A stretch of DNA of 64,000 bases from Methanotrichaceae archaeon. Its GTDB lineage: Archaea > Halobacteriota > Methanosarcinia > Methanotrichales > Methanotrichaceae. The notes beneath the pieces are model-generated. The model ran no database searches and was not told the origin of the DNA. It was given only the letters and a program-made list of their open reading frames with translations. Below are positions 7,379 through 42,764 of this stretch, piece by piece. Within the stretch, counting starts at the first letter, position 1, and the number at the start of each line of letters is the position of its first letter. The stretch covers positions 123,590-187,589 of the forward strand of contig CAWJYS010000021.1 of NCBI GenBank assembly GCA_963847095.1. The letters run 5' to 3'. The position numbers and the translations under genes are program-made.

Positions 7379-7821
7379 CTATTGGATGCATCGGCTCACC
7401 TGCAATGCATCCAGGATCCTGGTTAAAGCTGCAAGCCTACCTTCAAGCTCGTCGGTATTCTCCCATCCCGGGCGCAGACCTTCCGACCATTCGCCATAGC
7501 GATGCATCCTTACCAACAGACCATTCTCATAGAGAATCAACCTGTACTCGCTGAAAAAGCCCAAATCCTTCTCGAGCTGTACTCTCTCTTCGTTGGTCAG
7601 AATGACAATCTCACGGCGGTAGCATTGCTCATAGTCGATACTTAGCATAGGCACCAGGGCGTAACCTTCTCCAGGATCGCTTTCAGGACAGCCGCCTCTC
7701 TATCCAGGGTTTCCTTTTGTAGAGTGGCAATCTTGGCTGCCAGGGGCGGAAGCTCATCCAGTGCCGTGTTCAGTCCTGATAACATGCCTGAAGAGATCGC
7801 TGGATTGGTCACTATCAGCAT
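7379..7821 (-). pseudogene. Decayed copy of the multi-copy unknown gene family (full copy at 15732-16352), with a frameshift and an internal deletion
   Basis: DNA homology to 15732-16300. The N-terminal part reads MLIVTNPAISSGMLSGLNTALDEL...VTPWCLC*, then the frame shifts to MPMLSIDYEQCYRREIVILT...LEGRLAALTRILDALQ. About 40 codons are missing relative to the full copy. Confidence 0.5.
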
Positions 7822-7920
7822 GACGTTTTCAGTTTAGAGATAACTTTATCTGATCTCCATTATAATGATACCAAAGACTTATTAGCTACTAATGCACATA
7901 TTTGTAAAGGTGATATATTT

Positions 7921-8163
7921 ATGGTAGAGTTATCTCCGGATGATATAGATAAGATAGCAAACAAGGTCTTTGCAAAAATCGCTGAATCTATGATAAGAAA
8001 AGAGACTGGCGAGCCAACTCCAACCCCGACGCCAACTTGCCCAGAAGGTATGAAATTTGGATGCCCGAATAATGATGCTTTCGGATGTGATATAGGAGTG
8101 TTTGTGTGCACAGGTAAGGGATTCAAATGCCACCCCAAATATGTGGGATTTGAAAGGATATGA
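7921..8163 (+). CDS. Candidate RiPP precursor peptide (leader, PTPTPTPT linker, 5-Cys core)
   Basis: 80 aa reading MVELSPDDIDKIANKVFAKIAESMIRKETGEPTPTPTPTCPEGMKFGCPNNDAFGCDIGVFVCTGKGFKCHPKYVGFERI. There is no signal peptide, and it sits 81 nt upstream of an rSAM/SPASM gene. Confidence 0.45.
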   Translation: MVELSPDDIDKIANKVFAKIAESMIRKETGEPTPTPTPTCPEGMKFGCPNNDAFGCDIGVFVCTGKGFKCHPKYVGFERI

Positions 8164-8243
8164 AATCCAATATTTATAAGTTGGGCGGAGGCAAAATCCA
8201 GCATTAACTCAAACGCAGATTCATATTCTGATGGTAAGGCATC

Positions 8244-9422
8244 ATGCAAAGAGATATAATAAATGGGATTAGCAGTACTTTATTAGATCCTGATAACTTA
8301 ACCTCTTTCTGCATGAGCTTAAAAGAAGAGTTCAATTATACTCCGGAAGATTGCAGATCCTTCATTTATCAAGTAACTAAACAAATAAATGCAAAGCTAT
8401 TCCCCCCGATTACTGCATTAGAGCTGATAGTAACAGAAGACTGTAACCTAAGATGCGCATATTGCTTTGAGAAAGGTATGATTGGACGCGAGAAGATGTC
8501 TCTCAAAGTAGCTCAGGCAGCGATTGATCTTCTATTTGATTATTCTCAGGAGGAGAAAGACCTTTATATAACCTATTTCGGTGGAGAACCGCTTCTAAAC
8601 TTTCCTTTAATAAAATCTATTACTGAATATGTAGTGAAAAAGGAAGAATTCTCAGGGAAGAAAGTAGAATTCAGCATGACCAGTAATGGGGTTCTCCTCA
8701 ATGAATCAATGGCAGAATACCTTGCAATGCATAAGATAAATGTACTCTTAAGTATCGATGGATCTAAATTATCACATGATCTCTGCAGAGTAGATAAAAA
8801 AGGGCGCGGTACTTTTGAAAGATCAATAAAAGGATTGAAGATACTTAAGAAGTTTCAGCCGTGGATAGGAACAAGAATGACCGTTGTACCTGGTAATGTG
8901 CAAAGATTATACGAAGATGTAGTGGAGCTTCACGATCTAGGCATAAACCAATTTATCATTTGCCATGCCACGGGAATAGAATGGTCTAAAGAGGATATCG
9001 AGTCCTTTAGTTTGCAGATGAGAAAAATAGCGCATTGGTATAGGGAGAAATCCAGCAAAAATCTAAGGATATCTGTGCTAGATGAAGAAGATAGTGGATC
9101 AAGTTTTTTTGGCTGTCACGCTGCCAGAAATAGCATTTCCGTATCTGCAAACGGAGAGATATCTCCCTGTTCGAAGATTCTATCTTTGAATAATAAACGA
9201 TTGATATATAAGTTGGGCGATGTTGAATACGGCCTGATTAATGTTCTCAACAGGGCAGAGTTAATAAGTTGCTCAAAGCTTCGATCTGCTTGTAATGCGC
9301 TTCAGATAGCTGAAAGTTTCAGAGGAGGCTGCTTTGCAGCTAATTATGAGGATAATGGCGACATATTCCAGCCAAGTATTCAGGACCATGTATTCTCATT
9401 ACAATATCGATCTCTGTCATGA
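8244..9422 (+). CDS. Radical SAM enzyme with a C-terminal SPASM-type auxiliary-cluster domain (peptide-modifying maturase family)
   Basis: CNLRCAYC (CxxxCxxC) radical-SAM motif, followed by C-terminal Cys-rich CSKILS...CSKLRSACNALQ...GGCFAA. Confidence 0.85.
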   Translation: MQRDIINGISSTLLDPDNLTSFCMSLKEEFNYTPEDCRSFIYQVTKQINAKLFPPITALELIVTEDCNLRCAYCFEKGMIGREKMSLKVAQAAIDLLFDYSQEEKDLYITYFGGEPLLNFPLIKSITEYVVKKEEFSGKKVEFSMTSNGVLLNESMAEYLAMHKINVLLSIDGSKLSHDLCRVDKKGRGTFERSIKGLKILKKFQPWIGTRMTVVPGNVQRLYEDVVELHDLGINQFIICHATGIEWSKEDIESFSLQMRKIAHWYREKSSKNLRISVLDEEDSGSSFFGCHAARNSISVSANGEISPCSKILSLNNKRLIYKLGDVEYGLINVLNRAELISCSKLRSACNALQIAESFRGGCFAANYEDNGDIFQPSIQDHVFSLQYRSLS

Positions 9423-9454
9423 AGATCATTGCTAACGGTGACTATTCTGGTCAA

Positions 9455-9590
9455 TCCTCAAGGTATATTCCTCCTTTAGCTGGCTATAGCCATATAATCC
9501 AAAATAGCGCAAAGTAATTCACAGCAGAACTTGCCATCATCTTAAGAAGAGATTAAGGTAAAAGTTATTTGTGGAAGTTCCGGTAACTCA
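9455..9590. repeat. Copy 1 of a 135-bp direct repeat (promoter/leader-like)
   Basis: About 80% identical to 9893-10030. Shared core: ggctatagccatataa.ccaaaatagcgcaaagta. Confidence 0.6.
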
Positions 9591-9665
9591 GAACCTTAAG
9601 TAGAACTTTATCAGCCTTGATTAGCTACCAAATGAATTAATACTAGTAGTGTATTTAGCGGTTTT

Positions 9666-9776
9666 ATGGCAAACACACAAACAGATAAGAAGGTCGGTAA
9701 AGGAGAAGAAGAATCTAAAAAGGCCGGAAAAAATACAGGAGATACAACAGAAAAAGTAGTGGTGGTCAAAAGATAA
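9666..9776 (+). CDS. Small Lys-rich ORF (36 aa) downstream of repeat copy 1
   Basis: Reads MANTQTDKKVGKGEEESKKAGKNTGDTTEKVVVVKR. The only support is its position after a repeated upstream module. Confidence 0.2.
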   Translation: MANTQTDKKVGKGEEESKKAGKNTGDTTEKVVVVKR

Positions 9777-9892
9777 TCAGAATTCTTTCCGTTTTTTATA
9801 TTTTAGGACTTACGATTCGCAGAAAACTTCTTATAAATTTCTAATTTGACCTTTACGGCATGGATTTCCTGCTCGGATGGATGATTAGACAT

Positions 9893-10030
9893 GCCTTAAG
9901 GTATATTCACTCCATTAGGCGGCTATAGCCATATAAGCCAAAATAGCGCAAAGTATTTCATAGCTAAGCTTACCACCTTTTCAAAAAGAGATTAAAGCAA
10001 AGATAGTTAGCGGAAGTTCTGGAAATGAAG
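9893..10030. repeat. Copy 2 of the 135-bp direct repeat, immediately upstream of CDS 10038
   Basis: See copy 1. Confidence 0.6.
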
Positions 10031-10037
10031 GGATGAA

Positions 10038-10664
10038 ATGGACCTTAATTTAACAGGTGAACTTTGGGGTATGCCTATTAGTTTTATAGGCCAAATGACG
10101 GAAGAATCATCTATAGAGATTACTGATTGGTTACCTTCATTAATATCAATCGTCGTCGTGATAATAGGCGGTTTCATAACATATTCATCAACGATAAGTA
10201 TAGAAGAAAGAAAACTACAATATGAACTAAAAAAGAAAGCTTATTTTGATGTATTGGATGTAGTTCCTAAAATGGATGAAGTAATGAAATCTTGGGATAT
10301 ATATTGGTCTAATTACAATTCGCTTGATCGTGAAATGGAGAGGTTACAAACTGATAGGCCGAATTATATACAGAAAGACAAAGTTATAGTGGAAAGACTA
10401 AAAGAATCGGCAGATTTATTACAATCATATCAGATAAAAATACTAATTTGCGCTAATGAAGACGTAACCACTAGTTTTGATAAGGTAATGAACATGTTTA
10501 AAGATGAATTAAAGAGGTATGATTCATCTAACGAAGGTAAATATGATACCTTTAGTGACGAGCCTTATGATACCTTTAGCGGTATCCTATTCAAGGAATT
10601 AATACCAGCAATGAGAAATGATTTAATGAAAAGCAAAAAACAATGGTGGAAATTTTGGAAATAA
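10038..10664 (+). CDS. Hypothetical membrane-anchored protein
   Basis: 208 aa with one N-terminal TM segment (LISIVVVIIGGFITY). AT-rich. Confidence 0.5.
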   Translation: MDLNLTGELWGMPISFIGQMTEESSIEITDWLPSLISIVVVIIGGFITYSSTISIEERKLQYELKKKAYFDVLDVVPKMDEVMKSWDIYWSNYNSLDREMERLQTDRPNYIQKDKVIVERLKESADLLQSYQIKILICANEDVTTSFDKVMNMFKDELKRYDSSNEGKYDTFSDEPYDTFSGILFKELIPAMRNDLMKSKKQWWKFWK

Positions 10665-10974
10665 TTTTTATTTTTCTTTCATTCCCAGAGGTCACTCTGT
10701 TAACATGTTCATTCCATAGTTTATGAGAATAACCTCTTCCTGGAGCACACCATCACGATATCCATACCTTTACCAATATAAGGAGATTACAGAATTAGGG
10801 AGGGAGGATAGACCCATAAGGAGGCAAGCTTTTTCCTATCAGATCTACTCCCAATCTCATAATGTGATTTGTTCTAATATATAGATTGTGAGACAATATA
10901 AACGTTTAAATGTCATGTACCAATGATATAGAAGTTATTAAAAGCAAAATGATACAAACAGTTGGACGGGGGAA

Positions 10975-11277
10975 ATGGTCCGATATAGACCTGCTATCAA
11001 GATCGTGCTAAGGATTCTTGAGTGCATAGCTACAAGGCAATCAAGTGGGCGGGCCTTAAAAACTCATATAATCCAATGTGCAAACCTGAAGACCACTTCC
11101 GCTGAAAAGTATCTTGAGATGCTGAGAGAGGCGGGGTATGTCATTGAGAATAGAGAGAACTGGGGGGAGCGTGTGGTCATTGTATATGAGCTGACCCCTT
11201 TAGGGAGAGAGCGGTATAACTGGTTCAATAGGATCAATACCGAGCTTTTCAAGCCAAATGAATGGCTGGATGAGTGA
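10975..11277 (+). CDS. Small winged-helix transcriptional-regulator-like protein
   Basis: 100 aa with an archaeal wHTH-like pattern (TSAEKYLEMLREAGYV...ELTPLGRE). Confidence 0.5.
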   Translation: MVRYRPAIKIVLRILECIATRQSSGRALKTHIIQCANLKTTSAEKYLEMLREAGYVIENRENWGERVVIVYELTPLGRERYNWFNRINTELFKPNEWLDE

Positions 11278-11636
11278 TAATTACGGTCGAGGCCAATAAT
11301 AATCTTACAGATAGCTCTTATGAGCTGGTTGAGAGGATTGAGCGCAAAAGGATGTTGTTGACTGTAATCGTTATCGCTTGTTTTGTTCTTGCACCTATAG
11401 GAATAGGCAAAACTACTCATTCTATCATAGCAACATCTCACGAGAAAGGAGATTGGTCGAATACAAATATAGCTTCCACAGGAATTATTTTTGCAATTTC
11501 GGCTATGCTACTTGCTATGGGTATAAAGAAATATAAGGTGATCAAAGACTTAAAAAGCAAGCTAGCGCAGATGCAACTTTTTGAAGAGACAATCTATAAT
11601 GAGGTGCTAAAGTCAAATATGCGCCAATTGGAGTAG
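11274..11636 (+). CDS. Small membrane protein
   Basis: 120 aa with two hydrophobic segments. Its start overlaps the stop of 10975-11277. Confidence 0.4.
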   Translation: MIITVEANNNLTDSSYELVERIERKRMLLTVIVIACFVLAPIGIGKTTHSIIATSHEKGDWSNTNIASTGIIFAISAMLLAMGIKKYKVIKDLKSKLAQMQLFEETIYNEVLKSNMRQLE

Positions 11637-11686
11637 ACGATTATCAATTATCTGACAACCAAATGAAACCTAAAAACCAATGTCGG

Positions 11687-11740
11687 ATGGGGCCACTGCG
11701 ATTTGAACGCAGGTCACAAGACCCCCAGTCTTGTAGGATA
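11687..11740 (-). repeat. 54-nt perfect duplicate of the 3' part of tRNA-Pro(GGG), from the anticodon stem to the discriminator: att-site-like island boundary
   Basis: Identical to 21295-21348. Identity ends exactly at the tRNA discriminator on one side and inside the D-arm region on the other. Confidence 0.8.
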
Positions 11741-12220
11741 TCATTGAGCTTACGATTTCAATCCAAGGCTTTGTCCATAGAGCGCTTTATTCATATAGAG
11801 AAGATGAAGGCTTCTTAGGCCGCTTTAAAAGGTATGTGAAAGGAGTAGAGCCTTCGAATCTGATGGAGTTGATTTCATCTCGGAGGCTCTTTATTAGCAA
11901 AGAAATGGCACTGGATGATTTGATTCTCCCGAACGAAGCGTGATATGAATTTATCCAGTGCAACAACGGCATTGAGGAGGCTTATGGCTTGCGACCTTCT
12001 GCCTGGGTGAGCTGCCATGGGCAGGAGCTTTGAGAGCGTGAGGATAGGCGCGAAGTATGTCTCGGTCAAATGGCCGAAGGATGGATGATTAGGGGAATAA
12101 TCGGATTCGTAGGCATGGCCCGTGGATCTCATAATACTGTGATTCCTTCCTTCAACGATTACTCCATTATCTTGAGCAGCAAGAAAGGTATTCCAGCTAT
12201 CCGGGAGGTTTGTTATGCAG

Positions 12221-12790
12221 CTATTGCCGTGCCCTTTGTGCTAGATCTTCGGCCCACCGGTGGATCTCTTCCCAGTCCCTAGTATCGATCAATCCAGGGC
12301 TTGTCTCCTTAAAACCTGCTTCCTCAAATTGCTTGATAAGGGGAGCCAGGGTTCGCCGGAAGATAAAACCCATTTTGTTCTTATCCATGACGCCGCCAAA
12401 CAGGCCCAGAGCAATAGGATGCAGGTTATACTTTGATGCCTCGTCTTCTAAATACTGTTTCCTGAAGTTCTGTATATCCTCCATTTTGCCTTCGCGTTCA
12501 TATAGCGATTTTACGGCTGAAGAAACGAAGATGGCAACCTTCTTTTGGGCTAGGTCTTTCTGGAAGCTCTTTAGAAAAGCATCGCTCTCGCCGGTCCATC
12601 TGCCCATCTTTAGGCCGCCACCGACGACGATAAGATCGAACTCCGAGATATCTTTAATCTTCTCTTTTTTAAGGTCGACTACCCTGACGTCGAAGTTGTC
12701 ATGGCGGAGAATCTTGGCAATCTCTTCGGCGGTTCCGGCAGTGGCGCCATAACGGGTAGAGTAGGCAATTAAGGTTTTCGTTTTTCTCAC
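12221..12790 (-). CDS. Flavodoxin
   Basis: N-terminal KTLIAYSTRYGATAGTAEEIA FMN-binding loop, 189 aa. Confidence 0.75.
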   Translation of the reverse strand: MRKTKTLIAYSTRYGATAGTAEEIAKILRHDNFDVRVVDLKKEKIKDISEFDLIVVGGGLKMGRWTGESDAFLKSFQKDLAQKKVAIFVSSAVKSLYEREGKMEDIQNFRKQYLEDEASKYNLHPIALGLFGGVMDKNKMGFIFRRTLAPLIKQFEEAGFKETSPGLIDTRDWEEIHRWAEDLAQRARQ

Positions 12791-13014
12791 ATCCTTGGTA
12801 TAATGAATTGACGCCCATACTATTGCATTTGATATATTAATATGTTATTAACAATTAAAATTACATTGATAAGTTCTTAAAAACGTATTTAATATGCCTT
12901 GAATACTCTGCAGTCCTAGGCTTGGACAGCCTCCTTTATGCAAGCCGTCTCCATTTTGGGGATATAGCTTTCTACAGAATTAACTTTTTTTAGTTTGCGG
13001 TACAATTAACGGTT

Positions 13015-13782
13015 ATGAAATCGTTTATCATACTTTACCTGCTGGTGCTGTCAACGATCACCACTTGCGGGTGCCAGGAACGTGCGGACGATGGTAGCAC
13101 AAATGGCGGGGCTGTCGTTTCATCCAGCGTGGATATCCAGAGCGGGAACAGAACGTACCCCGCCTATCTGGCAGTGCCCGAGGGCGAAGGTACGTGGCCC
13201 GGTATCGTCCTCTTGCATTCGTTCGGCGGCCTCAATGCAGGATATAGAAATCTCACGGATAAGCTTGCATCAGAGGGCTACGTGGTAATCACCCCCGGAT
13301 GGCTGACCTTCGAGAGGCCCTCCGACGCCGTCATGGAAGCGATTGTAAGGGATTCGGTGAAATTCCTCGAGGACAGAGACGACGTGAACGAAGACCTCCT
13401 GGGGCTGACAGGCTTTTGCGCCGGTGGTAGGTACACAATGCTCTTCTTGCCCCAGATAGAGGAGTTCGAATCAGGAGTCGCCTGGTACGGGTTCCCCTAC
13501 AGAGAAAGCACAGTGAACGAGACGGCTCCGGCCGGGTACATAAATGAGCTTGATGACCCGATGCTCATCATCCATGGCACAGCAGACCAGTCGAGCAATG
13601 TGACGGACATCTACAGGTACGCGACAGACCTCGATAAAGCCGAAAAATACTTCGAGATGAAGATCTACCAGGGGGAGCCCCACGATTTCTTGATGACCGA
13701 AGAGGACGAGATCTCAGAGAGCTTCGCGGCCCAGGATGCTTACTGGCAGATGGCGACGTTCTTCAACAGGACTCTGCAATAA
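13015..13782 (+). CDS. Dienelactone-hydrolase-family alpha/beta hydrolase, secreted or lipoprotein
   Basis: Signal peptide ending in a TTCGC lipobox-like site, nucleophile elbow GFCAGG, and C-terminal HGTADQ and His motifs. Confidence 0.7.
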   Translation: MKSFIILYLLVLSTITTCGCQERADDGSTNGGAVVSSSVDIQSGNRTYPAYLAVPEGEGTWPGIVLLHSFGGLNAGYRNLTDKLASEGYVVITPGWLTFERPSDAVMEAIVRDSVKFLEDRDDVNEDLLGLTGFCAGGRYTMLFLPQIEEFESGVAWYGFPYRESTVNETAPAGYINELDDPMLIIHGTADQSSNVTDIYRYATDLDKAEKYFEMKIYQGEPHDFLMTEEDEISESFAAQDAYWQMATFFNRTLQ

Positions 13783-15011
13783 TAGAAGAGCGGAAAGCCA
13801 ATAAGGGCAAAGGAGGTAGGAGGGAAAAGCTCTTATCGGCTTTCGCCGAAGTCTATATAGACAATTGCCGAGATATATAGGTTTCGGCTTGAGTATGTAG
13901 GTAGGAGTCCTCCAGCAAGCAAGTCGAACTCCATTTTTCAGCCTCTCCTATACCTATCAGCCAGCTCCGATCCCTTATCCGCTAGGGGAATCTCATAACA
14001 GATCCTGGGTTTGTCATACCTGGCCAAATGTACAGATCTTTTTTCCAAACGAGGCGCATAATGGTCCACAGATACACACCCGCGAGCGCAGAAGAATCAG
14101 ATCACATTGGAGGCCTTCTCGTAAGGTTGCTTTGTAGACGATATGCCTGTCCTGTCAAGCCCTCGAGCATAACTAATCCATGGCGCACAGGTCTGGAGAC
14201 CGCCAAGGAGATAACAATACCACACAGGCTGTAGTTACTCCAAGGCTTCCTCCAGGCGTAGTGACGGACATTCCTGAAGATCAAACCGTAGAGTTGTATC
14301 CTGGGGTCCCCGCGCCCATTAGCTATCCCATCAGAGCAGTACAGAGCGGGACATATGCAGTCATCTCTCAGATAGCATACGCAGAGAACGGAACCTGGCG
14401 AGAGCTGCTGCTAGAGTCGCCTTTCACAGCCGAGGGAGAGATAGAATCTCCTCTTTTAGAGTAGTTTCAAATGATACCAGGCATCGAAATAACAGACGGC
14501 GGAGTGCCTATGGTTGAAGCTCCTTCCTAGGAAACCTCCTCGGCAAATGATAGTTCGTAATGGCGGAGATTTGCATCTCTATTATCGTGTGCTGAATATG
14601 TCCATTAAATCCGTACGCAGCTATCTACTCATTTAACATCAGTTATCAACACAGCACAATATAAAATGTACAAGGAGGGGTAGCCCTGAGATACCATTAG
14701 AGGTCTACCACATCGTTTATATCGTCGAATGCCGAGTAGGGTATCGGCAAAGTCGAGCAACATCAGTTTCCCTCCCAATTGTGACATCCTCGGCTTTGCC
14801 CTTAATCGCTTTATGTGGATATATTGGACGATAATCGCTTGAATACTCATCGTCCACTTAATTGCAGTTTGATGAGTCGTATGGCCTATATCTGCCATAC
14901 CTTTTTGCATTAATTCTAATTTTCTCTATGGATAATAGTAGGAACTATGAGCCATATGACCAAAAGGGTCACCCTACCCGAGCTTTCATGCAGCCTATTG
15001 AGCGCATCGGC

Positions 15012-15197
15012 TCACTGCAATGCATCCAGAATCTTAGTTAAAGCAGCGAGCCTGCCTTCAAGCTCCTCTTTAAGGATAACTACCGACGGGGCCTCGCCCA
15101 GGACCTTCATCAAGCCCTCTGAAATGGCTGTGAGGCCGAATGCTGTTATTGCTGCCTGAGGCGTAATCTCGTCCTCGTCGGCATTCTCCCAGAGCAT
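15012..15197 (-). pseudogene. C-terminal fragment of the multi-copy unknown gene family
   Basis: ADEDEITPQAAITAFGLTAISEGL...LEGRLAALTKILDALQ matches the C-terminus of 15732-16352. The 3' flank gagcgcatcggctcactgcaatgcatcc is conserved. Confidence 0.45.
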
Positions 15198-15219
15198 TGC
15201 TTAAAATACATCAAAGACG

Positions 15220-15432
15220 TTGTATAAAGAGATGAAGACATTACGTTATAGAATTCAACTCATACGGGAGGATGACGGGAGTTACACAGTGATAGTCCCA
15301 GCCCTGCCTGGCTGCCTGACCTCTGGCGAAACTGTAGAGGAGGCAATAGAGATGGCAAAGGAGGCCATAGAGGGCTACATACAGAGCCTAGCTGCCAGAG
15401 GGTGGAGATCCCAATGGAAGAAGACAGGATAG
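15220..15432 (+). CDS. hicB: HicB-family antitoxin (UPF0150-like)
   Basis: YTVIVPALPGCLTSGETVEEAIEMAKEAIEGYI motif. Sits directly upstream of a HicA-like gene. Confidence 0.7.
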   Translation: MYKEMKTLRYRIQLIREDDGSYTVIVPALPGCLTSGETVEEAIEMAKEAIEGYIQSLAARGWRSQWKKTG

Positions 15433-15447
15433 AGACCACTGTGACTG

Positions 15448-15681
15448 TTGAGGCCAATGCCTAAATTACCTGTCATACCTCCGCAGAAACTGGCCAAAGT
15501 CCTGGAAAAGAAGGGTTTTGTGTTGGACAGGATTAATGGAAGCCATCACATATACATCCACCCCGAAACTAATGCAACCATCGTAATTCCATTCCATAAA
15601 AAGGAGATGAAGAAAGGTCTGCTTCTGGAGGCCTTGAAGCAGGCCGGGATTACAAGGGAAGAATTGATAGATCTTCTGTAA
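15448..15681 (+). CDS. hicA: HicA-family mRNA-interferase toxin
   Basis: KKGFVLDRINGSHHIYIHPETN motif (YcfA/HicA). Confidence 0.7.
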   Translation: MRPMPKLPVIPPQKLAKVLEKKGFVLDRINGSHHIYIHPETNATIVIPFHKKEMKKGLLLEALKQAGITREELIDLL

Positions 15682-15731
15682 TATGTTTCGCTGCTCTCCG
15701 TGCTTTCAGGTTAACTCCTGAGCGCATCGGC

Positions 15732-16352
15732 TCACTGCAATGCATCCAGGATCCTGGTTAAAGCAGCGAGCCTGCCCTCAAGCTCCTCTTTAAGGAGAAC
15801 TATCGACGAGGCATCACTAAGAACCTTTATCAATCCCTCTGAAATAGCCGCGAGGCCGAACGCCGCTATTGCCGCCTGAGGTGTAATCTCATCCTCGTCG
15901 GCGTTCTCCCACCCAGAGCGCAAACCTTCCGACCATTCGCCATAGCGGTGCATCCTTGCCAGCACGCCGTTCTCATAGAGAATCAGCCTGTACTCGCTGA
16001 AAAAGCCAGAACCCTTCTCAAGCTGTACCCGCTCTTCTTGAGTCAGAATGACAACCTCACGGCGGTAATATTGCTCGCAGTCATCGCTGAGCAGCGGCAC
16101 CAGGGGCGTGACCTTCTCCAGGATTGATTTCAGGACAGCCGCCTCTCTATCCAGGGTTTCCTTTCTTAGAATGGCAATCTTGGGGGCTATGGGCTGAAGC
16201 TCATCCAGTGCCGTGTTCAGGCCTGATAACATGCCTGTGGTTACTGGATTGGTCGCTATTAGCACGGCGTTCTCGGAAAGGTTTGGGGCGGACATTAGAT
16301 TGCCACCACCGCTTTGGTTAGGGCGCTTGCAGGAGACGAGGGTGGTATGCAT
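15732..16352 (-). CDS. Full-length member of a three-copy unknown gene family. The true start is possibly the Met at about 16295.
   Basis: 206 aa. It has a decayed paralogue at 7379-7821 and a fragment at 15012-15197. No recognisable domain. Confidence 0.55.
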   Translation of the reverse strand: MHTTLVSCKRPNQSGGGNLMSAPNLSENAVLIATNPVTTGMLSGLNTALDELQPIAPKIAILRKETLDREAAVLKSILEKVTPLVPLLSDDCEQYYRREVVILTQEERVQLEKGSGFFSEYRLILYENGVLARMHRYGEWSEGLRSGWENADEDEITPQAAIAAFGLAAISEGLIKVLSDASSIVLLKEELEGRLAALTRILDALQ

Positions 16353-16399
16353 ACATCCTTCGCTCCCTGGTATACGATCTCAAAAATTGTTCTTCCAAT

Positions 16400-16415
16400 C
16401 ATCTCAACTCACCAA
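16400..16415. repeat. Left arm of a 16-bp perfect inverted repeat flanking the RHH gene
   Basis: catctcaactcaccaa is the reverse complement of 16715-16730. Confidence 0.7.
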
Positions 16416-16512
16416 TGCCCTGATAGGAGAGTAAAATATTTAACTCTTTTGCTTCTTGGGTGGCTTGATGGGATAAAAGGTTTATAGCTAGAGATTTAGA
16501 CACATAAAGAGT

Positions 16513-16695
16513 ATGGAGTCTGAGAAGAAAACACCAACTAAAATGAATATATCGCTATCACCAGAAGTAGCAGCTGCGTTGAGGAAATTCGCCTTTGAGT
16601 CCACAGGGCAAATGAGAGGAGTTTCAGAGGTTGCAGAGAAGGCGATACGCGAATATTTGGAAAAGCATGGTGTTAAGATTAAAGGGCAGGCATAA
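16513..16695 (+). CDS. Ribbon-helix-helix (CopG/Arc-like) DNA-binding protein
   Basis: MNISLSPEVAAALRKFAFESTG...AEKAIREYLEKH is a beta-alpha-alpha RHH pattern. The start is likely the internal Met at 16543. Confidence 0.55.
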   Translation: MESEKKTPTKMNISLSPEVAAALRKFAFESTGQMRGVSEVAEKAIREYLEKHGVKIKGQA

Positions 16696-16714
16696 GCCCG
16701 CCCTGCATCTCTTC

Positions 16715-16730
16715 TTGGTGAGTTGAGATG
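16715..16730. repeat. Right arm of the 16-bp inverted repeat
   Basis: ttggtgagttgagatg. It is preceded by the hairpin gcagg-N11-cctgc at the RHH stop. Confidence 0.7.
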
Positions 16731-16989
16731 CAATAAGATCTCTATTGCTCTTTAAAGATAACTTTATCGATCTTTTCACTGAAAGCCTACAAAACGCCTA
16801 TCTATATGGCGATAAGCCTTATTTATTAGAATCGGGCAAAAACCAGATATAAGCTATTAGTCTTAAAATCCTCTACTTTATAAATATCGATCCATTACAT
16901 TCTCTAATAAATCCCCCTGATCAGTTCGAAATGGAGGCGGACTTAAATACTGTTGCTTAACTACCTATCTACTAACAGGGGTGCAGTCC

Positions 16990-17040
16990 AATAATTAGGC
17001 TTTTTCTGCCCGGAGAACAACATAAACTATATCTAAGTTA
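16990..17040 (+). promoter_or_regulatory. Conserved upstream module A (TTTTCTGCCCGG.GAACAACATAAACTATATCT.AGTTATCGCC)
   Basis: Four near-identical roughly 45-nt modules lie 40-60 nt upstream of four consecutive genes. The core is TATA-like. Confidence 0.55.
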
Positions 17041-17081
17041 TCGCCAATATCATCACCACAAAAAATAAAGGGAACGGGTAA

Positions 17082-17636
17082 TTGGTGAAAGATGAGCTAG
17101 AAATTTTATACAAAAATTTAGATCACATATCTAAAGCATATTTATCAACACAATCAGAAATAATTGCATGGGAAGCTATTTTTGCACTGGTGGTGGGCCA
17201 AATTTTTCTGGCTTTCATACAGCTAAATGATGATCAAAGAACAGGAATGATTGGCTCAGTTGTTATTATATTAGGATCTATTTTTTCACTGATTTGGTTT
17301 GCAGTATTTCCTAAAACTCAGCATTATCAAAGAGATAGGGTTAGAAAACTGAAAAAGTTAGAAGAACGCATTAGACGTATAGATCCAGAATTTTTAGGTT
17401 ATTCACATCCCGACAAAGACGTCGGAAAAATTAAAGCATGGCATATACTTAAAATAATTCCAGTTATATTTTCTATAATTTGGATATTTCTGTCCATAAT
17501 GTACCCTAATAAACAGCATACTACATATATCATAACGCTTGGAATCACAGTTATATGCTTTATAGCGATTTGGATTTTTATTTTGTGTTTATATGAAGAT
17601 TGGATCAAGAAATGGTGGTTACCTTCTCAGGGATAG
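17082..17636 (+). CDS. Polytopic membrane protein
   Basis: 184 aa with four hydrophobic segments. Preceded by module A. Confidence 0.5.
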   Translation: MVKDELEILYKNLDHISKAYLSTQSEIIAWEAIFALVVGQIFLAFIQLNDDQRTGMIGSVVIILGSIFSLIWFAVFPKTQHYQRDRVRKLKKLEERIRRIDPEFLGYSHPDKDVGKIKAWHILKIIPVIFSIIWIFLSIMYPNKQHTTYIITLGITVICFIAIWIFILCLYEDWIKKWWLPSQG

Positions 17637-18027
17637 ATGCAATACATTCAAACGCCGGTCTTAGTAAAGTGTGCATGAAGTTGGATAATAACCAAGATAG
17701 ATCCTAATATCCCTGCAAAGACTGTGATTAAACTTGGAGCATCAAGATTTGCAGGAAATAACTTGAAACTCACCCATGTAAGGAAACATGAACCTAGGAG
17801 CAAACCGCTTATTTTTGCCCATGATCCTTGGTGAATCTGCATTCATCATAAAGGTATTAACCTTAAAGATAAATAGTTTTTGTGAACCTAAAATCCATAT
17901 TTTGACTACATATTGTGATTAAGTATTCTCATTGCACATAGCATTTGTCTTTTTCTGTTGCTTTTGGTAAATGTCCGGAAGAAGAGATAAAAGAAAAGGG
18001 CAATTGGTGGCGGTTCTGGAAATAAGA

Positions 18028-18312
18028 TTAAGGAATAGGGTATTTAAGTCCACCACTCACCACAAAATCAAAGATCATTGCCGGAAGTTTGACATGGGTA
18101 ATTACAATTTTACCGCTGTACACTTTATTACCTGATTTAAAAACACCTTCAGCATCACCGGCATTAATTCCAAATTCGTTTGATTCCGCTCTTCCTCTCC
18201 AGCTATTCATACCAACTTGACTAACACTGTGATATATTTGCCAATCACCAATGGAAATGGATTTTCCATCCATTGTTATATTCCCACCATATCCGGCTAA
18301 GCGTTCGGACAT
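18028..18312 (-). CDS. Hypothetical small protein (94 aa)
   Basis: ORF only. Confidence 0.25.
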   Translation of the reverse strand: MSERLAGYGGNITMDGKSISIGDWQIYHSVSQVGMNSWRGRAESNEFGINAGDAEGVFKSGNKVYSGKIVITHVKLPAMIFDFVVSGGLKYPIP

Positions 18313-18370
18313 ATAATGATAGATTCATGGGTAAATATATAAGGGTTAGGCTCAGGGTGAAACTATTAAC

Positions 18371-18420
18371 GTTTTCTACCGGGTGAACGACGTAAACTAT
18401 ATCTCAGCTACCGCCATCCC
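18371..18420 (+). promoter_or_regulatory. Conserved upstream module B
   Basis: See module A. Followed by GGAGGGAGAAGAGC-TTG-AAA-CTC. Confidence 0.55.
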
Positions 18421-18444
18421 CATCAATAACGGAGGGAGAAGAGC

Positions 18445-18981
18445 TTGAAACTCAAAGAATTTGTAATTTTGATAGCCATGGTTCTAGCGGTGCTATTGAT
18501 AGCTGGATGCGCTTCAAGCGGAAAAAATATAGGACCATATACAGTAACTTTTGATGGTATTGATGAAGAATACAAATACGGCGGTGAAAGTTCTAAGGCA
18601 AAGGAGTTTAAAACAGATTCAGGGGTTTCATATACAGAATATAGTAGGATGTTTTGGAAAGAGAATATGGAAGGAGATATAACAATTGGAGTCAATACTT
18701 ACGCTATCCCGATGTATAATGATAACCAAAATCCAAGAGAAGTTTTAAAAAGTCTTATAGAACCAAATGATAATATAACGATAGAAAATATAGAGATGGA
18801 TGGCAAACCCGGCATTTTGGCAAAAGAAAAGTTTATTTGGGCGGGCGGTGAACCCGGTGCTACATATATGCTATTTTATTGGCTTGATCCAAAAACTAGA
18901 GTTGGAGCTTATTTTATGGAAAGCCCAAAGAATAAATGGGATGATGCAAGCAAAGCAATGATGTCCATCAAGGTATCCTGA
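18445..18981 (+). CDS. Secreted lipoprotein-like protein (TTG start)
   Basis: MKLKEFVILIAMVLAVLLIAGCASS signal peptide with a lipobox Cys. The RBS GGAGG lies 9 nt upstream of TTG. Confidence 0.6.
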   Translation: MKLKEFVILIAMVLAVLLIAGCASSGKNIGPYTVTFDGIDEEYKYGGESSKAKEFKTDSGVSYTEYSRMFWKENMEGDITIGVNTYAIPMYNDNQNPREVLKSLIEPNDNITIENIEMDGKPGILAKEKFIWAGGEPGATYMLFYWLDPKTRVGAYFMESPKNKWDDASKAMMSIKVS

Positions 18982-19035
18982 ATACCCATCCCTTTTTTAG
19001 CCACTTACCTTATTGAAATGCTCATGAAGCTAAGG

Positions 19036-19085
19036 CTTTTCCTACCCGGTGAACAACATAAACTATATCTGAGTTATCGCCATCA
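19036..19085 (+). promoter_or_regulatory. Conserved upstream module C
   Basis: Carries the identical leader GGAGGGAGAAGAGC-TTG-AAA-CTC seen in module B. Confidence 0.55.
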
Positions 19086-19110
19086 CCTTCATCAAAGGAG
19101 GGAGAAGAGC

Positions 19111-19737
19111 TTGAAACTCGTTGAAGCTGGAATAATCGCTATAACACTATTTTGTTTAGCAGGGAATGCATATGGAGTTATGCAAGTCTATGATAGTGAT
19201 TTTGGCAAAATTAAAGTTGATTTGCCCATGGTGCTAATCCCAAAAGATGGGAATACAGGTACTTGGATAGACTTAGTTAAGGAAGGATCAGAAAAGCCTG
19301 TCATCTCTATACGCATGCAAACAACTTATGGGGAAGATTTTAAAAAATACGCAACTTCATCAGGCTTTAAGAGTATACCGATTGAAACAACAACCAATGA
19401 CGGATATAAAATAATTTATTACTCTGACCACAGTGGCACTAATAGTCAATATCAACCTGTATATCATTATACTGCGTTTATTGATTACTTGAAAGATAAG
19501 GGTAAGATAGTGCAAATGTGGACTTATTCAGAAGTAAATGGGAAAGAAGGAGCAGTAGCTAGATTTGATAAAGATCAATTCCTTGAAATATCCAAATCCT
19601 TTGCTGTTATAAGTGAATCAGAAGCGCAAGCTATAGTGGCGGAAACTGCAAAAACAAACCAATCGCCGGGATTTGGATCATTCTTCGCTATTCTGAGCCT
19701 TCTCGGAGCTATTTTTATCATGCAAAAGATAAAGTAG
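19111..19737 (+). CDS. Secreted protein with a PGF-CTERM archaeal sorting signal (TTG start at 19111; the tracked ORF from 19018 is over-extended)
   Basis: N-terminus (M)KLVEAGIIAITLFCLAGNAYG. C-terminus SPGFGSFFAILSLLGAIFIMQKIK, i.e. a PGF motif, TM helix and basic tail. Confidence 0.6.
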   Translation: MKLVEAGIIAITLFCLAGNAYGVMQVYDSDFGKIKVDLPMVLIPKDGNTGTWIDLVKEGSEKPVISIRMQTTYGEDFKKYATSSGFKSIPIETTTNDGYKIIYYSDHSGTNSQYQPVYHYTAFIDYLKDKGKIVQMWTYSEVNGKEGAVARFDKDQFLEISKSFAVISESEAQAIVAETAKTNQSPGFGSFFAILSLLGAIFIMQKIK

Positions 19738-19996
19738 ATATAGATATTTTATTTTTTCCTACTTCTTTATTTTCCCGGTTCCTTAGAGATCATCCATAAT
19801 ACCCCAAATAGAGCTACAAAGACAGCTACCACATTAGGAGCATCAGGAAATAGCCGAAATACCGCCCATGTAAAGAAGATAGATGCTAGAACTAACCCGC
19901 CAATTCTAGCCCATGATTCTTGATGAATGAAGGACATCCATCATTGAAATATTAGTTTCGTAGGTATAAGGGTTTGGCTCAGGGCGTAACTTTTAG

Positions 19997-20045
19997 CCTT
20001 TTCTGCCCGGTGAGCAACGTAAACTATATCTAAGTTACCGCTGTC
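19997..20045 (+). promoter_or_regulatory. Conserved upstream module D
   Basis: See module A. Modules B and D share an additional roughly 30 nt upstream (ggctcagggyg.aac). Confidence 0.55.
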
Positions 20046-20104
20046 ACTACCATCAAAAAAAAGTCAAACCCGGAGGGTAAAATATTTTCTCAAATTTTGG
20101 GGTA

Positions 20105-20773
20105 TTGATACAGAATGCGCAATCATCAAGTGTGCTGATTTGGGTAGCAATTATATCTGCACTATCAGCTATAGCATCAGCTTCAATATCAGCTTATCTA
20201 GTCGGTAAAGTGAATTATGATACAAATAAGAAGTTAGAGCAACAAAGGTTTGAGAACAACAACAGATTAGAAAAAGAGAAAGCTAAAAATCTAAAAATCC
20301 AAAAACAATGGGAAGTATTCAGCAAGTTAAAAGGTATTCAAGCGGCATTACCTCAAGATTATATAAATACATATCAAACTGTTGTAGGAATCGTCAGTCA
20401 ACAAGCTGCATCTAGACTACATTCTGAAGAAGAAAATCAACGACTTCATATTGATGAAGCTAGAAGGTTAATTGATAGATCATACGAAAATAAAAAAACA
20501 TTTGCTAGGAATCGACAAAAATTATATGAAATAATAGGTTTAATTCTGATTTTATTTCCAAATAAACCCGAATTGCATGAAAAGATCAATCCTATATATT
20601 CACAAATAACAGTATTTGAATCCGAATTTAATGAAACTAATCTAATAGAAGAGATTGAAGCCTTAGTTCCACATATTTTTGGCGATCTTAAGAAATGGGT
20701 TGAAACATTTGATCATGAAAAAGTAGAAGAGAATCTTGATAAGATTAAAGAATGGAAAACGGGGAAAGTATGA
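20105..20773 (+). CDS. Membrane-anchored coiled-coil protein
   Basis: N-terminal TM segment (VLIWVAIISALSAIASASISAYLVG), then a charged coiled-coil region. Confidence 0.5.
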   Translation: MIQNAQSSSVLIWVAIISALSAIASASISAYLVGKVNYDTNKKLEQQRFENNNRLEKEKAKNLKIQKQWEVFSKLKGIQAALPQDYINTYQTVVGIVSQQAASRLHSEEENQRLHIDEARRLIDRSYENKKTFARNRQKLYEIIGLILILFPNKPELHEKINPIYSQITVFESEFNETNLIEEIEALVPHIFGDLKKWVETFDHEKVEENLDKIKEWKTGKV

Positions 20774-21295
20774 AAAAGTAAACCAACTAACAGTAGAAAA
20801 CGTATGTCAACAGCTAAAGGATTTACTTAATTATCTTCAAGCAGAAATACATACTTCGGAAGAGGATTCTATACTGATCATTAATTTTTTTCAAAGGTTA
20901 CTCTAAATTTAGGATTTAGGGTTTCCCATCTCCTCTTTTATATAGCCGTGTTTTAAGCATTCTGTTTTGCTTTATTGAAATGCTCATGGGAAGCTGGATA
21001 ATTACCGCGATTGATGCTAATATCCTGGCAAAGACAGTAGCCAATAATAGTATACCTCTATAAGCCCCTTACAAGCCCATAGCGAAGCTTTGCAGATAGC
21101 TTGAAGGGTAAACCTTATTATGTAGATCCATGTGCAATTTTGGGCCTACCATTGCTTCGCGGCATATTTTCAAGCCCTTAGAGTAACAAGACTGGCGACT
21201 GGTATCCAAAAAAGCTTATATCTTAGAAGCCCTATCTCACATTAAAACATGGAGAAAGTGATACAATCAAAATCACTACCAGCAAAATGTTTCCA

Positions 21296-21368
21296 TGGGG
21301 CCACTGCGATTTGAACGCAGGTCACAAGACCCCCAGTCTTGTAGGATACCAGGCTACCCTATGGCCCC
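21296..21368 (-). tRNA. tRNA-Pro (anticodon GGG), no encoded CCA
   Basis: The reverse complement GGGGCCATAGGGTAGCCTGGTATCCTACAAGACTGGGGGTCTTGTGACCTGCGTTCAAATCGCAGTGGCCCCA folds as a cloverleaf: acceptor stem 7 bp, anticodon stem CAAGA/TCTTG with loop CTGGGGG, and T arm CTGCG-TTCAAAT-CGCAG. Confidence 0.85.
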
Positions 21369-21456
21369 TCACAGCGCTACCCTAGGATGTAGAACAGGCA
21401 TATAAGGGTTTCCCATTCATCAAAAATCATAATAATATAAAAAGCTCCGAAGGCAG

Positions 21457-22179
21457 CTAGCCCCCAGATGCACTCATCTCCTTCTTGAAGAACTCGTTCA
21501 TCATTCCGATATACATCTCCTGCGGGAGAAGCGGGCGGCCAACCGCCTTTTGTGTTTCTGCCGACATCTCGCCCTGCGCTACTAGCTGGCGGCCCGCCTC
21601 CCTTGCTGCCTGAAGCACATCGTCCACAGGCGCGCCCATATTTATCATAGGCCTCAGCGCCTCGCCGTGCGGCCTGAGAAGCGCGCCGGCGAAGACCATG
21701 CTCCAGCTGCGACAAAATGCCCTCATCCATACGAGCAGCGGATCGAAGTTGTCCATCTCCCAGTATGCACAGCTGGATACCAGCACCACCTTTTTTGCCT
21801 TTGTCCCTTCGGGGTTGGGCTGATACGTGTGGCCGTCTTTGATCTCCATTAGCGGCTGGCCGAGGGGAAGCATTCTATCGATCACGTTCTTCAAAGGAGC
21901 CGAAATACCGCTATCGTAAACCGGAGACGCATAAACTATAACATCTGCCTCCCTGAACCGAGGATAGAGCTGCTGCATATCGTCTTTTATCGCGCACTCG
22001 CCGGGATGCTTGAGCCAGCAGCCCATATCGCCGTTGCAGGGCTTGACCTCAAGCTCCTGTGTGTAGAACAGCTCCACATCCCCGCCCGCAGATCTGATGC
22101 CCTCCAGGAATGGATTCAGGATTAAAGCAGTGTTGCCTTTGTCCATATGCGGACTGCCGTTGATGGCAAGGACCTTCAT
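21457..22179 (-). CDS. NAD(P)H-dependent FMN-reductase / flavodoxin-like-fold flavoprotein
   Basis: MKVLAINGSPHMDKGNT N-terminus with a Cys cluster CNGDMGCWLKHPGEC. 240 aa, GC-rich. Confidence 0.6.
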   Translation of the reverse strand: MKVLAINGSPHMDKGNTALILNPFLEGIRSAGGDVELFYTQELEVKPCNGDMGCWLKHPGECAIKDDMQQLYPRFREADVIVYASPVYDSGISAPLKNVIDRMLPLGQPLMEIKDGHTYQPNPEGTKAKKVVLVSSCAYWEMDNFDPLLVWMRAFCRSWSMVFAGALLRPHGEALRPMINMGAPVDDVLQAAREAGRQLVAQGEMSAETQKAVGRPLLPQEMYIGMMNEFFKKEMSASGG

Positions 22180-23482: not shown

Positions 23483-23689
23483 CCATTTATGAATAGCAGC
23501 ACATGAAGGATATGATGGGGTAACAATGCAGTTGAATTGAGTTCATTGCGGAAACTGCAACATTTAGGGCGTTAATATTAAGCTCTTTGTGCATTTATCT
23601 TGTGATGAACTAATGTTTCTGACAAAGCGTAAGGTACAAAGAGATATCTAATGCGGTTTCCAGCAAAGTTGACCGTAAAATCCTTTGGG

Positions 23690-23846
23690 CGTCCTTTGTG
23701 GGCTTTGTGAGCTTTGTGGTGGTATTTCGTAAGCTTTTGTAGTTAATTACGGACTTAAATCAAACCCCAAAGCTCACAAAGAACTTTTAAGCTTAAGATC
23801 TCTTGACGACCCAAAATGAGGACTACTTAGTTTGGAGGGGCACTAG
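23690..23846. repeat. Dispersed inverted-repeat element of the CACCACAAAGCTCACAAAG family
   Basis: cctttgtgggctttgtgagctttgtggtgg...ccaaagctcacaaag. Homologous to 37538-37688 and 56512-56618. Confidence 0.65.
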
Positions 23847-32935: not shown

Positions 32936-33076
32936 TTATGCCTTTTCTATCATCTTTATTGCGATAGAGATAAGCGAAACGGCGAGTTTCGCGAAAATTT
33001 TAACCAACATGTATATTAACTAGAGTATGCCTTTATAGAAGGCTGCATTGCGTCGATTCAAAGGTACGTGAATTAA

Positions 33077-33280
33077 ATGTTCGAGAGAAAGTACGAAAGC
33101 AGCAGCGGTAGCGATAGTAGAAGCAGCTTTAACCGCGCCCCAAGAGAGACGACAGACGTAACTTGTTCTGAGTGCGGAAAGCAGACTCAAGTCCCATTCA
33201 AGCCGGACGGATCCAGGCCGGTTTACTGCAGCGAGTGCTACCAGAAGCACAGGCCTGCAAGGTCACCCAGAAGATATTAA
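33077..33280 (+). CDS. Small zinc-ribbon protein (CxxC...CxxC), paralogue of 52503-52718
   Basis: TCSECGKQTQVPFKPDGSRPVYCSECYQKHRP. Confidence 0.5.
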   Translation: MFERKYESSSGSDSRSSFNRAPRETTDVTCSECGKQTQVPFKPDGSRPVYCSECYQKHRPARSPRRY

Positions 33281-33579
33281 ACCGATTTGATTATTCACTT
33301 TTTTAACTCCTAGAGACCCAATCGATGAGGAAAAGGAATAGTAGAATTGAACACCTCTGAACCGTGTGGAATTGGACTATCAGTATCAATTCGCTTTCCT
33401 ATCGAAGATTACGAAAAACTACTTGATCTAGTAGGCAGATAGCGGTGACATATTCTACCACGATTGCATGAGAAATATGAAAATATCTGACGAGCGGAGG
33501 GATCTAAATTAAACAATCTATAATTCCAGAGATAAAGAAATTTGACGACATAATCTCGGAGCTGGGGCGCAGAGGGATT

Positions 33580-33837
33580 GTGGTGCTGATGAACCGCCCT
33601 ACACGCTGGGGCTATGTCGTGGACGCTGTCATCCCCTCGGCAAAGGTAGTCATTCTGAAAATACCGGATTTAACCAGGCAAACCAAAGTGGCAATGGTCA
33701 CTTTCCGGGATATGAAAAATAGACTTGAAGGCGATGGATATCAAGTCCTCATAGTGCCTAATAGAAGCATGAACGAGGCGCAAATCAACGCCTTCTGTGA
33801 TCGGGTCTCAATCAAACCTGCCCTTGCTGCTGCCTGA
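33580..33837 (+). CDS. Conserved hypothetical 85-aa protein, paralogue of 53675-53932
   Basis: About 85% identical at the protein level to the second copy. Confidence 0.5.
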   Translation: MVLMNRPTRWGYVVDAVIPSAKVVILKIPDLTRQTKVAMVTFRDMKNRLEGDGYQVLIVPNRSMNEAQINAFCDRVSIKPALAAA

Positions 33838-37537: not shown

Positions 37538-37688
37538 ATTAAGTCCGTAGTTGACTATAAAAGCTTACGAAATACCACCACAAAGCTCACAAAGAGCACA
37601 AAGGACTCATGAAGAATGTTTGAAGCTTAAGATCTAAGATCTCCTGACGGCTAAAAAATGAGAATATCTTAGTTTGAAGGGTACTAGC
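37538..37688. repeat. Dispersed element of the CACCACAAAGCTCACAAAG family
   Basis: Its first half is the reverse complement of 23690-23760. The second half is colinear with 23790-23846. Confidence 0.65.
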
Positions 37689-41677: not shown

Positions 41678-41953
41678 TTACTTTCTCTTGTATATCTCAT
41701 CATGGTGTCTGAGATCGAGCAACTTCACCGTCATATTCTCCTCATCCACTTCGAAAACCAATACAAAGGACTTCTCCAGGTGAACCCTTCTCAGCCCCTT
41801 CAAATCGTATCTTAAAGGCTTAAAGTGCTTGGGGTTATCTAAAATCTCCTCTGTTTTATTCAGCACTGCATCGTAAAGAGACCTGTTCTTCTTGAATAGC
41901 TTCTTCAAATGAGCCTTCAGATCCTCATCGATCAGCAGCCTGTAGCGCGGCAT
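41678..41953 (-). CDS. RelE/ParE-family type II toxin
   Basis: KPLRYDLKGLRRVHLEKSFVLVFEVDEE pattern. Confidence 0.7.
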   Translation of the reverse strand: MPRYRLLIDEDLKAHLKKLFKKNRSLYDAVLNKTEEILDNPKHFKPLRYDLKGLRRVHLEKSFVLVFEVDEENMTVKLLDLRHHDEIYKRK

Positions 41954-41955
41954 CT

Positions 41956-42201: not shown

Positions 42202-42233
42202 TCCTACTTATTGGGGTTGAATATTAAAGCTTG

Positions 42234-42620: not shown

Positions 42621-42764
42621 CTTGATCCTCTCAAAGATTACTATGGAGATCTTTGATATAAAGGGGTTTTGAAATTCGGAAATGACAAAACATAATAATT
42701 GAGGTAAAAAATATATCCTCAGGTAAAGCTAAATAGGCTTGAACGTCCTTCATTCGAAATTACT

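Follow-up and report, generated by a model that had tools for sequence, protein, structure and literature searches.

An integrase-less mosaic island between direct repeats at a tRNA-Pro(GGG) integration hotspot in Methanothrix

We analysed a 64-kb stretch of a Methanotrichaceae (Methanothrix) chromosome (hereafter the window), in which a partial copy of the tRNA-Pro(GGG) gene lies on the 3' side of the intact gene; the DNA of about 9.6 kb between the two copies is referred to here as the island. ARAGORN and Rfam agree that the window contains a single tRNA gene, and both confirm the minus-strand tRNA-Pro(GGG) called in an initial annotation made from the sequence. A repeat search of the window revealed a direct repeat at 11687-11743 and 21295-21351, identical at 56 of 57 positions, with a core in which all 54 nt are the same (11687-11740 and 21295-21348). 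The initial annotation had described this exact, same-orientation copy as running from the anticodon stem to the discriminator of the tRNA. Its assignment to the 3' part of the gene stands; its limits do not, since the repeat reaches into the D-loop (tRNA position 21) and starts one base beyond the discriminator, at 21295. The copy itself is borne out by the repeat search, by a mismatch-tolerant search and by shuffling: each 27-nt half of the repeat occurs exactly twice in the window with up to three mismatches allowed, the expectation from 100 shuffles being 0.00. Neither word-7 blastn nor the mismatch-tolerant search of the window detected a third, degenerate copy, which would have been the sign of a tandem array. 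The complete identity of the 54-nt fragment suggests that it is not very old, but no age can be put on it, given that the tRNA of the window and that of three contigs from relatives (L001-L003) are likewise 100% identical over 74 nt.

The repeat copies enclose the genes that the initial annotation had listed, namely a flavodoxin, a dienelactone-hydrolase (DLH) lipoprotein, HicB and HicA, an orphan gene with extra copies, a small protein resembling Arc and other ribbon-helix-helix (RHH) proteins, and several membrane or secreted proteins (Table 1). It had taken them for the content of a single, recently acquired element of 9.6 kb, a view that the data do not support: the left 5.3 kb is of the same composition as the host chromosome (the background for 5-kb pieces is a tetranucleotide correlation, r, of 0.85 +/- 0.04) and syntenic with loci of relatives, and only the right 4.3 kb differs from the chromosome and looks foreign. 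The island is thus a mosaic.

Table 1. Features of the island and its surroundings in the window, in order of position (att, attachment site, labelled according to the interpretation given in the text; GC, guanine plus cytosine; r, tetranucleotide correlation to the rest of the window; ORF, open reading frame)
Feature	Position	Strand	Remarks
Low-GC left flank	7860-11686		Cys-rich peptide, radical-SAM/SPASM enzyme, 208-aa protein, winged helix-turn-helix (wHTH) plus membrane-protein cassette
Left flank, part outside the repeats	7860-10770		GC 36.3%; r 0.59; atypical
att core copy 2 (attR), displaced tRNA-Pro 3' fragment	11687-11740		Same orientation as copy 1
Left part of island	11741-17000		GC 47.7%; r 0.86; native-like
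Non-coding arm beside attR	11741-12220		No Pfam match in six frames
Flavodoxin (Flavodoxin_5)	12221-12790	-	Pfam E 2.3e-20
DLH lipoprotein	13015-13782	+	Pfam DLH E 1.2e-28
Gene-poor stretch	13783-14977		Syntenic with L054 (13772-14000, 14205-14965), 85-93% identical
Multi-copy orphan gene, 3' fragment	14978-15191	-	
HicB antitoxin	15220-15432	+	Pfam E 1.6e-12
HicA toxin	15448-15681	+	Pfam E 3e-21
Multi-copy orphan gene, 206 aa	15732-16352	-	Probable start 16295 (187 aa)
Small (60-aa) Arc/RHH-like protein	16513-16695	+	PHROG Arc-like repressor E 6e-4, weak
Right part of island	17001-21294		GC 35.6%; r 0.49; foreign
8xMP membrane protein	17082-17636		
Small membrane ORF, member 1 of paralogous pair	17648-17842	-	
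178-aa lipoprotein	18445-18981		
PGF-CTERM protein	19018-19737		
Small membrane ORF, member 2 of paralogous pair	19767-19937	-	
222-aa transmembrane/coiled-coil gene, nearest tRNA	20105-20906		Probably frameshifted
Non-coding arm beside tRNA	20907-21294		Site of integrase gene in relatives
att core copy 1 (attL)	21295-21348		tRNA nt 21-73 plus 1 nt past discriminator; 53 nt are the tRNA 3' part
tRNA-Pro(GGG), intact	21296-21368	-	ARAGORN; Rfam RF00005, 56 bits (gathering score 29)
TnpB-like ORF	61424-62305		OrfB_IS605 and Cas12f1-like TNB domain; sole transposon-related gene found in window

The synteny of the left part was traced on contigs of relatives. Contig L054 corresponds to the window over 11738-11817, 12906-14000 and 14205-14965; two others (L055 and L073) match no more than the DLH region, with starts at about 12906 or 12976 and ends at 13781-13996. 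The first of these stretches, 11738-11817, is 91% identical to its counterpart in L054, which is located after a UbiE-type methyltransferase gene. In both L054 and L055, 'GATATCATTGAG' (window 11738-11749) is bordered on its left by the stop codon of this methyltransferase gene, and not by a tRNA fragment; homology to the relatives therefore starts no more than 3 nt from the inner edge of the partial tRNA copy. The flavodoxin stretch (11818-12905) is missing from the syntenic contigs, its place being taken by an 86-aa gene, and copies of the DLH gene that are 89-93% identical are found in at least three other chromosomal contexts of relatives. In one variable region with DLH (contig L050), we found no tRNA-Arg fragment closing the region. 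Further right, a 214-nt direct repeat (85% identity; 14978-15191 and 15698-15911), derived from the 3' end of the orphan gene, lies on either side of HicAB, suggesting that tandem copies of this gene either took up an insertion or recombined with one another. The orphan gene has two partial extra copies, one of which is frameshifted and lies outside the island (7400-7833). The left part also contains a 77-nt non-coding element (16914-16990) that is 86-87% conserved in L056 (1756-1831) and L069 (116-192) and occurs as well in L070-L072; in these unrelated Methanothrix contigs too it borders arrays of small orphan genes, and it matches no Rfam family at the gathering score.

The right part is an array of small genes for membrane and secreted proteins. 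Four of these low-GC genes have in common an upstream element of about 60 nt (…CCCGGTGAACAACATAAACTATATCTAAGTTATCGCC…; 16997-17065, 18338-18453, 19033-19119 and 19965-20060), presumably a shared promoter or leader, and the array therefore resembles a set of paralogous cassettes. In the gene closest to the tRNA a frameshift is probable towards the 3' end, since the 222-aa ORF and an overlapping 56-aa ORF both align to single homologues of 238-264 aa. These homologues, which are 48-57% identical, all come from Methanothrix. In L067/L068, 3.4 kb containing Hypoth_Ymh and SLFN/AlbA genes separate the homologue from a tyrosine integrase, and in L069-L072 it stands among ParE, AbiGi and methyltransferase genes. 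The putative surface-protein cassettes have relatives located in integrase-bearing variable islands.

We examined the state of the same tRNA gene in relatives. The 53 nt of the repeat that belong to the tRNA occur exactly in three Methanotrichaceae (Methanothrix/Methanosaeta) metagenome-assembled genomes (MAGs), once in each and always within a full tRNA. The nearest relative contig, L004, was found by scanning metagenomes with the FMN reductase gene that adjoins the tRNA (21457-22179), the two reductases being 87% identical at the amino-acid level. Look-ups of the exact FMN reductase and DLH sequences of the window gave no record of either, so that the collection consulted lacks the source genome. 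Nucleotide homology between the window and L004 spans the reductase and the tRNA and ends exactly at 21295, the outer edge of the repeat and the 3' end of the tRNA. In L004, a 286-aa ORF begins 61 nt past the tRNA and encodes a Phage_integrase domain (E 8.5e-28) together with a SAM-like N-terminal domain; the protein resembles archaeal XerA, its score being below the cut-off of the model (156 against 220 bits). It is followed by a protein with multiple wHTH domains and by orphan genes, none of which has a counterpart in the window. At the same position, contig L002 carries a frameshifted integrase homologue covering residues 1-142, followed by the core genes for RlmE, Alba and phosphoglucomutase. 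Contigs L001 and L003, from two independent MAGs, break off no more than 20 nt from the tRNA 3' end, and the 19 nt left after the tRNA in L003 match the arm of L004 with a score that none of 2000 shuffles reached. The breaks in L001 and L003 are consistent with strain-level heterogeneity at the integration site having disrupted the assemblies. Neither att flank of the window is significantly similar to the DNA that adjoins the 3' end of the tRNA in the relatives. The integrase of L067/L068 is 46% identical to that of L004, and neither a tRNA nor an att sequence was found close to it. Thus, because a full integrase gene, an integrase pseudogene and the same arm stand at one tRNA in L004, L002 and L003, respectively, tRNA-Pro(GGG) is a genuine hotspot: it is, by comparison of these contigs, a recurrent target of a Xer-like tyrosine integrase family in this clade. 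The L004 integrase has no relative in IMG/VR and only generic Xer-like matches, of at most 31% identity, in phage and plasmid collections, and the exact 53-mer has no match in IMG/VR.

The initial annotation had reported no tyrosine or serine recombinase in the island, and this absence is borne out at much higher sensitivity. We translated 11600-21400 in six frames and ran all stop-to-stop segments of at least 35 aa against Pfam; the only matches in the island were flavodoxin, DLH, HicB, HicA, 8xMP and PGF-CTERM. No integrase remnant was detected over the whole window by tblastn with the L004 and L002 integrases (best E 0.58), nor by a family hidden Markov model (HMM) built from four integrases of the relatives' loci and run with --max on every frame segment from 15 aa upwards (best E 3.1). 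The 388 nt between the 222-aa gene and the tRNA (20907-21294), where relatives carry the integrase gene, hold no detectable remnant of one. Among most other window ORFs of at least 110 aa, a Pfam scan that omitted housekeeping genes recognised by eye (for example thermosome, DEAD-box helicase and a formate dehydrogenase subunit) returned no integrase, resolvase or serine recombinase. Capsid, packaging, replication and partition hallmarks are likewise absent from the island according to PHROGs, with the weak Arc-like match only, and to six-frame Pfam; the island DNA has no match in a plasmid collection, and PADLOC found nothing among the island proteins.

Three explanations had been offered for the missing integrase: loss, an unrecognised type, and mobilisation in trans. 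Loss fits best. A recombinase of unrecognised type, for which the 206-aa orphan would be the obvious candidate, or an integrase gene split by integration in the manner of SSV (Sulfolobus spindle-shaped virus), is a very improbable alternative that is already largely refuted. Several island ORFs are without a family assignment and the orphan gene is multi-copy, which speak for it. The orphan is, however, the only sizeable cytoplasmic one, and we rejected it as a recombinase because its AlphaFold 2 model, computed from a 33-sequence alignment, is predicted to lack a recombinase-like fold (a single-sequence model, with a predicted local distance difference test score, pLDDT, of 38, was unusable). 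When the attP junction was rebuilt from the two repeat copies, the longest frames across the core were of 54 and 50 codons on the two strands, so that no SSV-type split gene exists there. The profile search covering small ORFs and split halves, which had been proposed as a check, ended with neither an integrase nor a split gene.

Taken together, these data lead us to read the locus, with a probability of roughly 0.6, as a decayed, rearranged, mosaic and non-autonomous att-flanked island, whose repeats are the attL and attR left by a tyrosine integrase. The initial annotation had already taken the geometry for the product of site-specific integration at the 3' portion of a tRNA gene; the integrases at the same tRNA in relatives now give this view independent support. 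Indeed, the repeat pair is best read as attL and attR because the same tRNA is an integration hotspot, and this is the strongest independent support; the location, in L067/L068, of a homologue of the 222-aa gene near an integrase belonging to this family adds to it. No relative contig examined shows the same repeat with a conserved interior. In the history that we propose from geometry and hotspot, a tyrosine integrase of the L004/L067 family would have recombined the attP of an element with the 3' part of tRNA-Pro(GGG), restoring the tRNA at 21296-21368 and leaving the displaced 3' fragment at 11687-11740. Elements integrated at this tRNA in the lineage carry the Xer-like integrase gene directly beside it; here we infer that this gene once lay inside the island and was then deleted, the 388 nt in its place now being non-coding, and any replication or virion genes would be gone as well. 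The content would subsequently have been reshuffled, the native-type block being either cargo of a host-adapted element or DNA that moved in later, by a deletion or translocation ending at the att edge. Reshuffling of some such kind is shown by the comparison with the methyltransferase-linked loci, from which its direction is not readable, and the order of these later rearrangements is likewise our reconstruction. The outcome would be the present interior, with 5.3 kb of native type (flavodoxin, DLH, HicAB and the orphan) and 4.3 kb of low-GC surface-protein cassettes. On this reading, what remains is not an intact mobile element.

Several observations weigh against this reading. None of the relatives' contigs provides an unoccupied attB, since no contig joins the tRNA to the flank on the 11686 side and the others are occupied or end there, and no relative contig examined has the same attR junction. 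The island has no sequence in common with the integrase-bearing elements of L004 and L002. The DNA just inside attR is continuous with the methyltransferase gene in three contigs of relatives, where no tRNA fragment is present, which is awkward for a history in which one element was inserted. The flank beyond attR is itself low in GC and atypical, so that 'host' and 'element' sides are not assignable with confidence. Finally, only 64 kb of the genome are in view.

An alternative is that a later rearrangement trapped ordinary chromosomal DNA between the att copies, much of the 'island' never having been mobile. An element would have integrated at tRNA-Pro. A deletion, a translocation or recombination away from the proper target, ending at a microhomology (GATA) on the inner side of the displaced att copy, would then have joined this copy to the methyltransferase-DLH region. 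The start of the homology to L054, L055 and L073 within 3 nt of the att edge, beside a methyltransferase stop codon and without a tRNA fragment, points this way, as do the native composition of 11741-17000 and the presence of the DLH gene, at about 91% identity, in several chromosomal contexts. A study entitled 'Flipping chromosomes in deep-sea archaea' reportedly describes integrase-driven chromosomal rearrangements at tRNA-related sites in Thermococcales, and by analogy such events could be a route by which chromosomal DNA came to end beside an att or tRNA-derived site; the repeats of the island are direct, however, no inversion is documented, and the mechanism would have to be carried over by inference. 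Moreover, the direction of change is not readable and the relatives could represent the derived state, the window lacks the methyltransferase gene, and the junction coincides with the end of the identical block, whereas tyrosine integrases usually exchange strands elsewhere. On balance we consider this account unlikely.

Still less probable, in our view, is that the island is an intact non-autonomous element, excised and perhaps transferred in trans by an integrase from an autonomous element of the L004/L067 family, one that would either reside at another place in the genome or arrive at the same tRNA. It would then be an archaeal counterpart of the cis-mobilisable elements (CIMEs) of Streptococcus, which derive from integrative and conjugative elements (ICEs) or integrative and mobilisable elements (IMEs) and are flanked by att sites without recombination or transfer genes. 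The term CIME occurs in PMC5704250 and PMC7563491. Like a CIME, the island is att-flanked, lacks recombination and transfer genes and occupies a site used by autonomous elements, so that mobilisation in trans would, by analogy, be possible in principle; both att copies are intact and identical, integrases aimed at the same tRNA exist in relatives, and a tRNA that is 100% identical between the window and L001-L003 could be acted on by the same integrase. Unlike CIMEs, it is archaeal, has no sequence relation to an autonomous partner, and has shown neither tandem accretion nor mobilisation so far. The window of 64 kb contains no integrase, the lack of arm sequence in common with the integrase-bearing elements makes it unlikely that arm-type binding sites were kept, neither a second copy nor a circular form was seen, and half of the cargo looks native. 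We would attach a similarly low likelihood to the further picture of a still-mobile, integrase-less satellite (an archaeal CIME) that shuttles promoter-sharing surface-protein cassettes and captured chromosomal genes between strains with a borrowed integrase. An origin of the repeat as an assembly artefact, or as a chance or segmental duplication unrelated to integration, is very unlikely indeed. The contigs of relatives' MAGs do break at this tRNA, yet a collapsed or chimeric join leaves a single copy and not a pair separated by 9.6 kb; the edge of the repeat coincides with the 3' end of the tRNA plus 1 nt, where the homology to L004 also ends, and the chance expectation is 0.

The decayed att-flanked island finds close parallels among archaeal elements. 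tRNA genes are the usual archaeal att sites, as reviewed in 'Archaeal tyrosine recombinases' (PMC8371274), and in archaea integrated elements most commonly lie at a tRNA gene as about 9.5 kb of DNA enclosed by perfect repeats some 55 nt long (PMC4158269). ArcVen-P3 of Archaeoglobus veneficus (PMC4158269) is alike in its perfect direct repeat of about 55 nt over the 3' part of a tRNA, its size of about 9.5 kb and its archaeal host, and the locus further resembles classical archaeal tRNA-integrated elements in that an element with an integrase occupies this tRNA in relatives. In contrast to elements of the ArcVen-P3 type, the island is without integrase, replication and virion genes, and half of its interior is of native type. 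With the SSV-type elements that have 'suicidal' integrases (PMC7253208, PMC8371274), it shares an archaeal host, integration at a tRNA and the lack of an intact integrase gene in the integrated state; it differs from them in having no int(N) and int(C) halves running through the att copies, where the longest frame is 54 codons, and no integrase domain. Of the traits by which tRNA islands are recognised, att repeats and use of the same tRNA in relatives are present, and an integrase inside, hallmark genes and an SSV-type split are absent. The island is a decayed integrase-less tRNA island, which is a known kind of thing, and no new type of element.

The surroundings of the repeat pair add several features. 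The low-GC flank to the left of attR (7860-11686) is possibly what is left of an older island at this tRNA, though it lacks a distal att copy. Just outside attR, the genes for a wHTH protein and a membrane protein (10775-11655) form a multi-copy cassette that has unrelated flanks in other Methanothrix genomes, and for this reason the pair was ruled out as a route to an orthologous flank or an empty site. Further left, an 80-aa ORF with a Cys-rich C-terminal half lies directly upstream of the radical-SAM/SPASM enzyme (7921-9422; Radical_SAM E 5.8e-18; SPASM E 8.7e-4, just under the Pfam cut-off), and the two look like a precursor-maturase pair for a ribosomally synthesised and post-translationally modified peptide. 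This pair is followed by a 132-nt direct repeat with 80% identity (9456-9586 and 9894-10025). On the other side of the tRNA, the window contains a cluster resembling defence or toxin-antitoxin genes (41681-44267), which comprises a ParE-family toxin, an MNT-like nucleotidyltransferase and, ahead of a 133-aa ORF, an AAA_15/AAA_21 ATPase. A short dispersed repeat (50-70 nt) occurs at 23678-23758, 37539-37606 and 56509-56560, and also in the relative L055 (2646-2807); it has an internal inverted repeat (23703-23727 and 23757-23781) and may be regulatory or similar to miniature inverted-repeat transposable elements. A segment of about 0.8 kb with small ORFs is duplicated at 79-88% identity (33053-33833 and 52480-53928).

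Methanothrix species are among the most important acetoclastic methanogens, and their mobile elements are little known. The locus reveals no new mechanism; together with the contigs of relatives, it identifies a tRNA-Pro(GGG) hotspot and the Xer-like tyrosine integrase family for which it is a target. The locus also illustrates the probable decay of such islands into mosaics that lack an integrase but hold toxin-antitoxin and surface-protein genes. It is of help in annotating genomes of Methanothrix, and it may account for the breaks of MAG contigs at tRNA-Pro(GGG).

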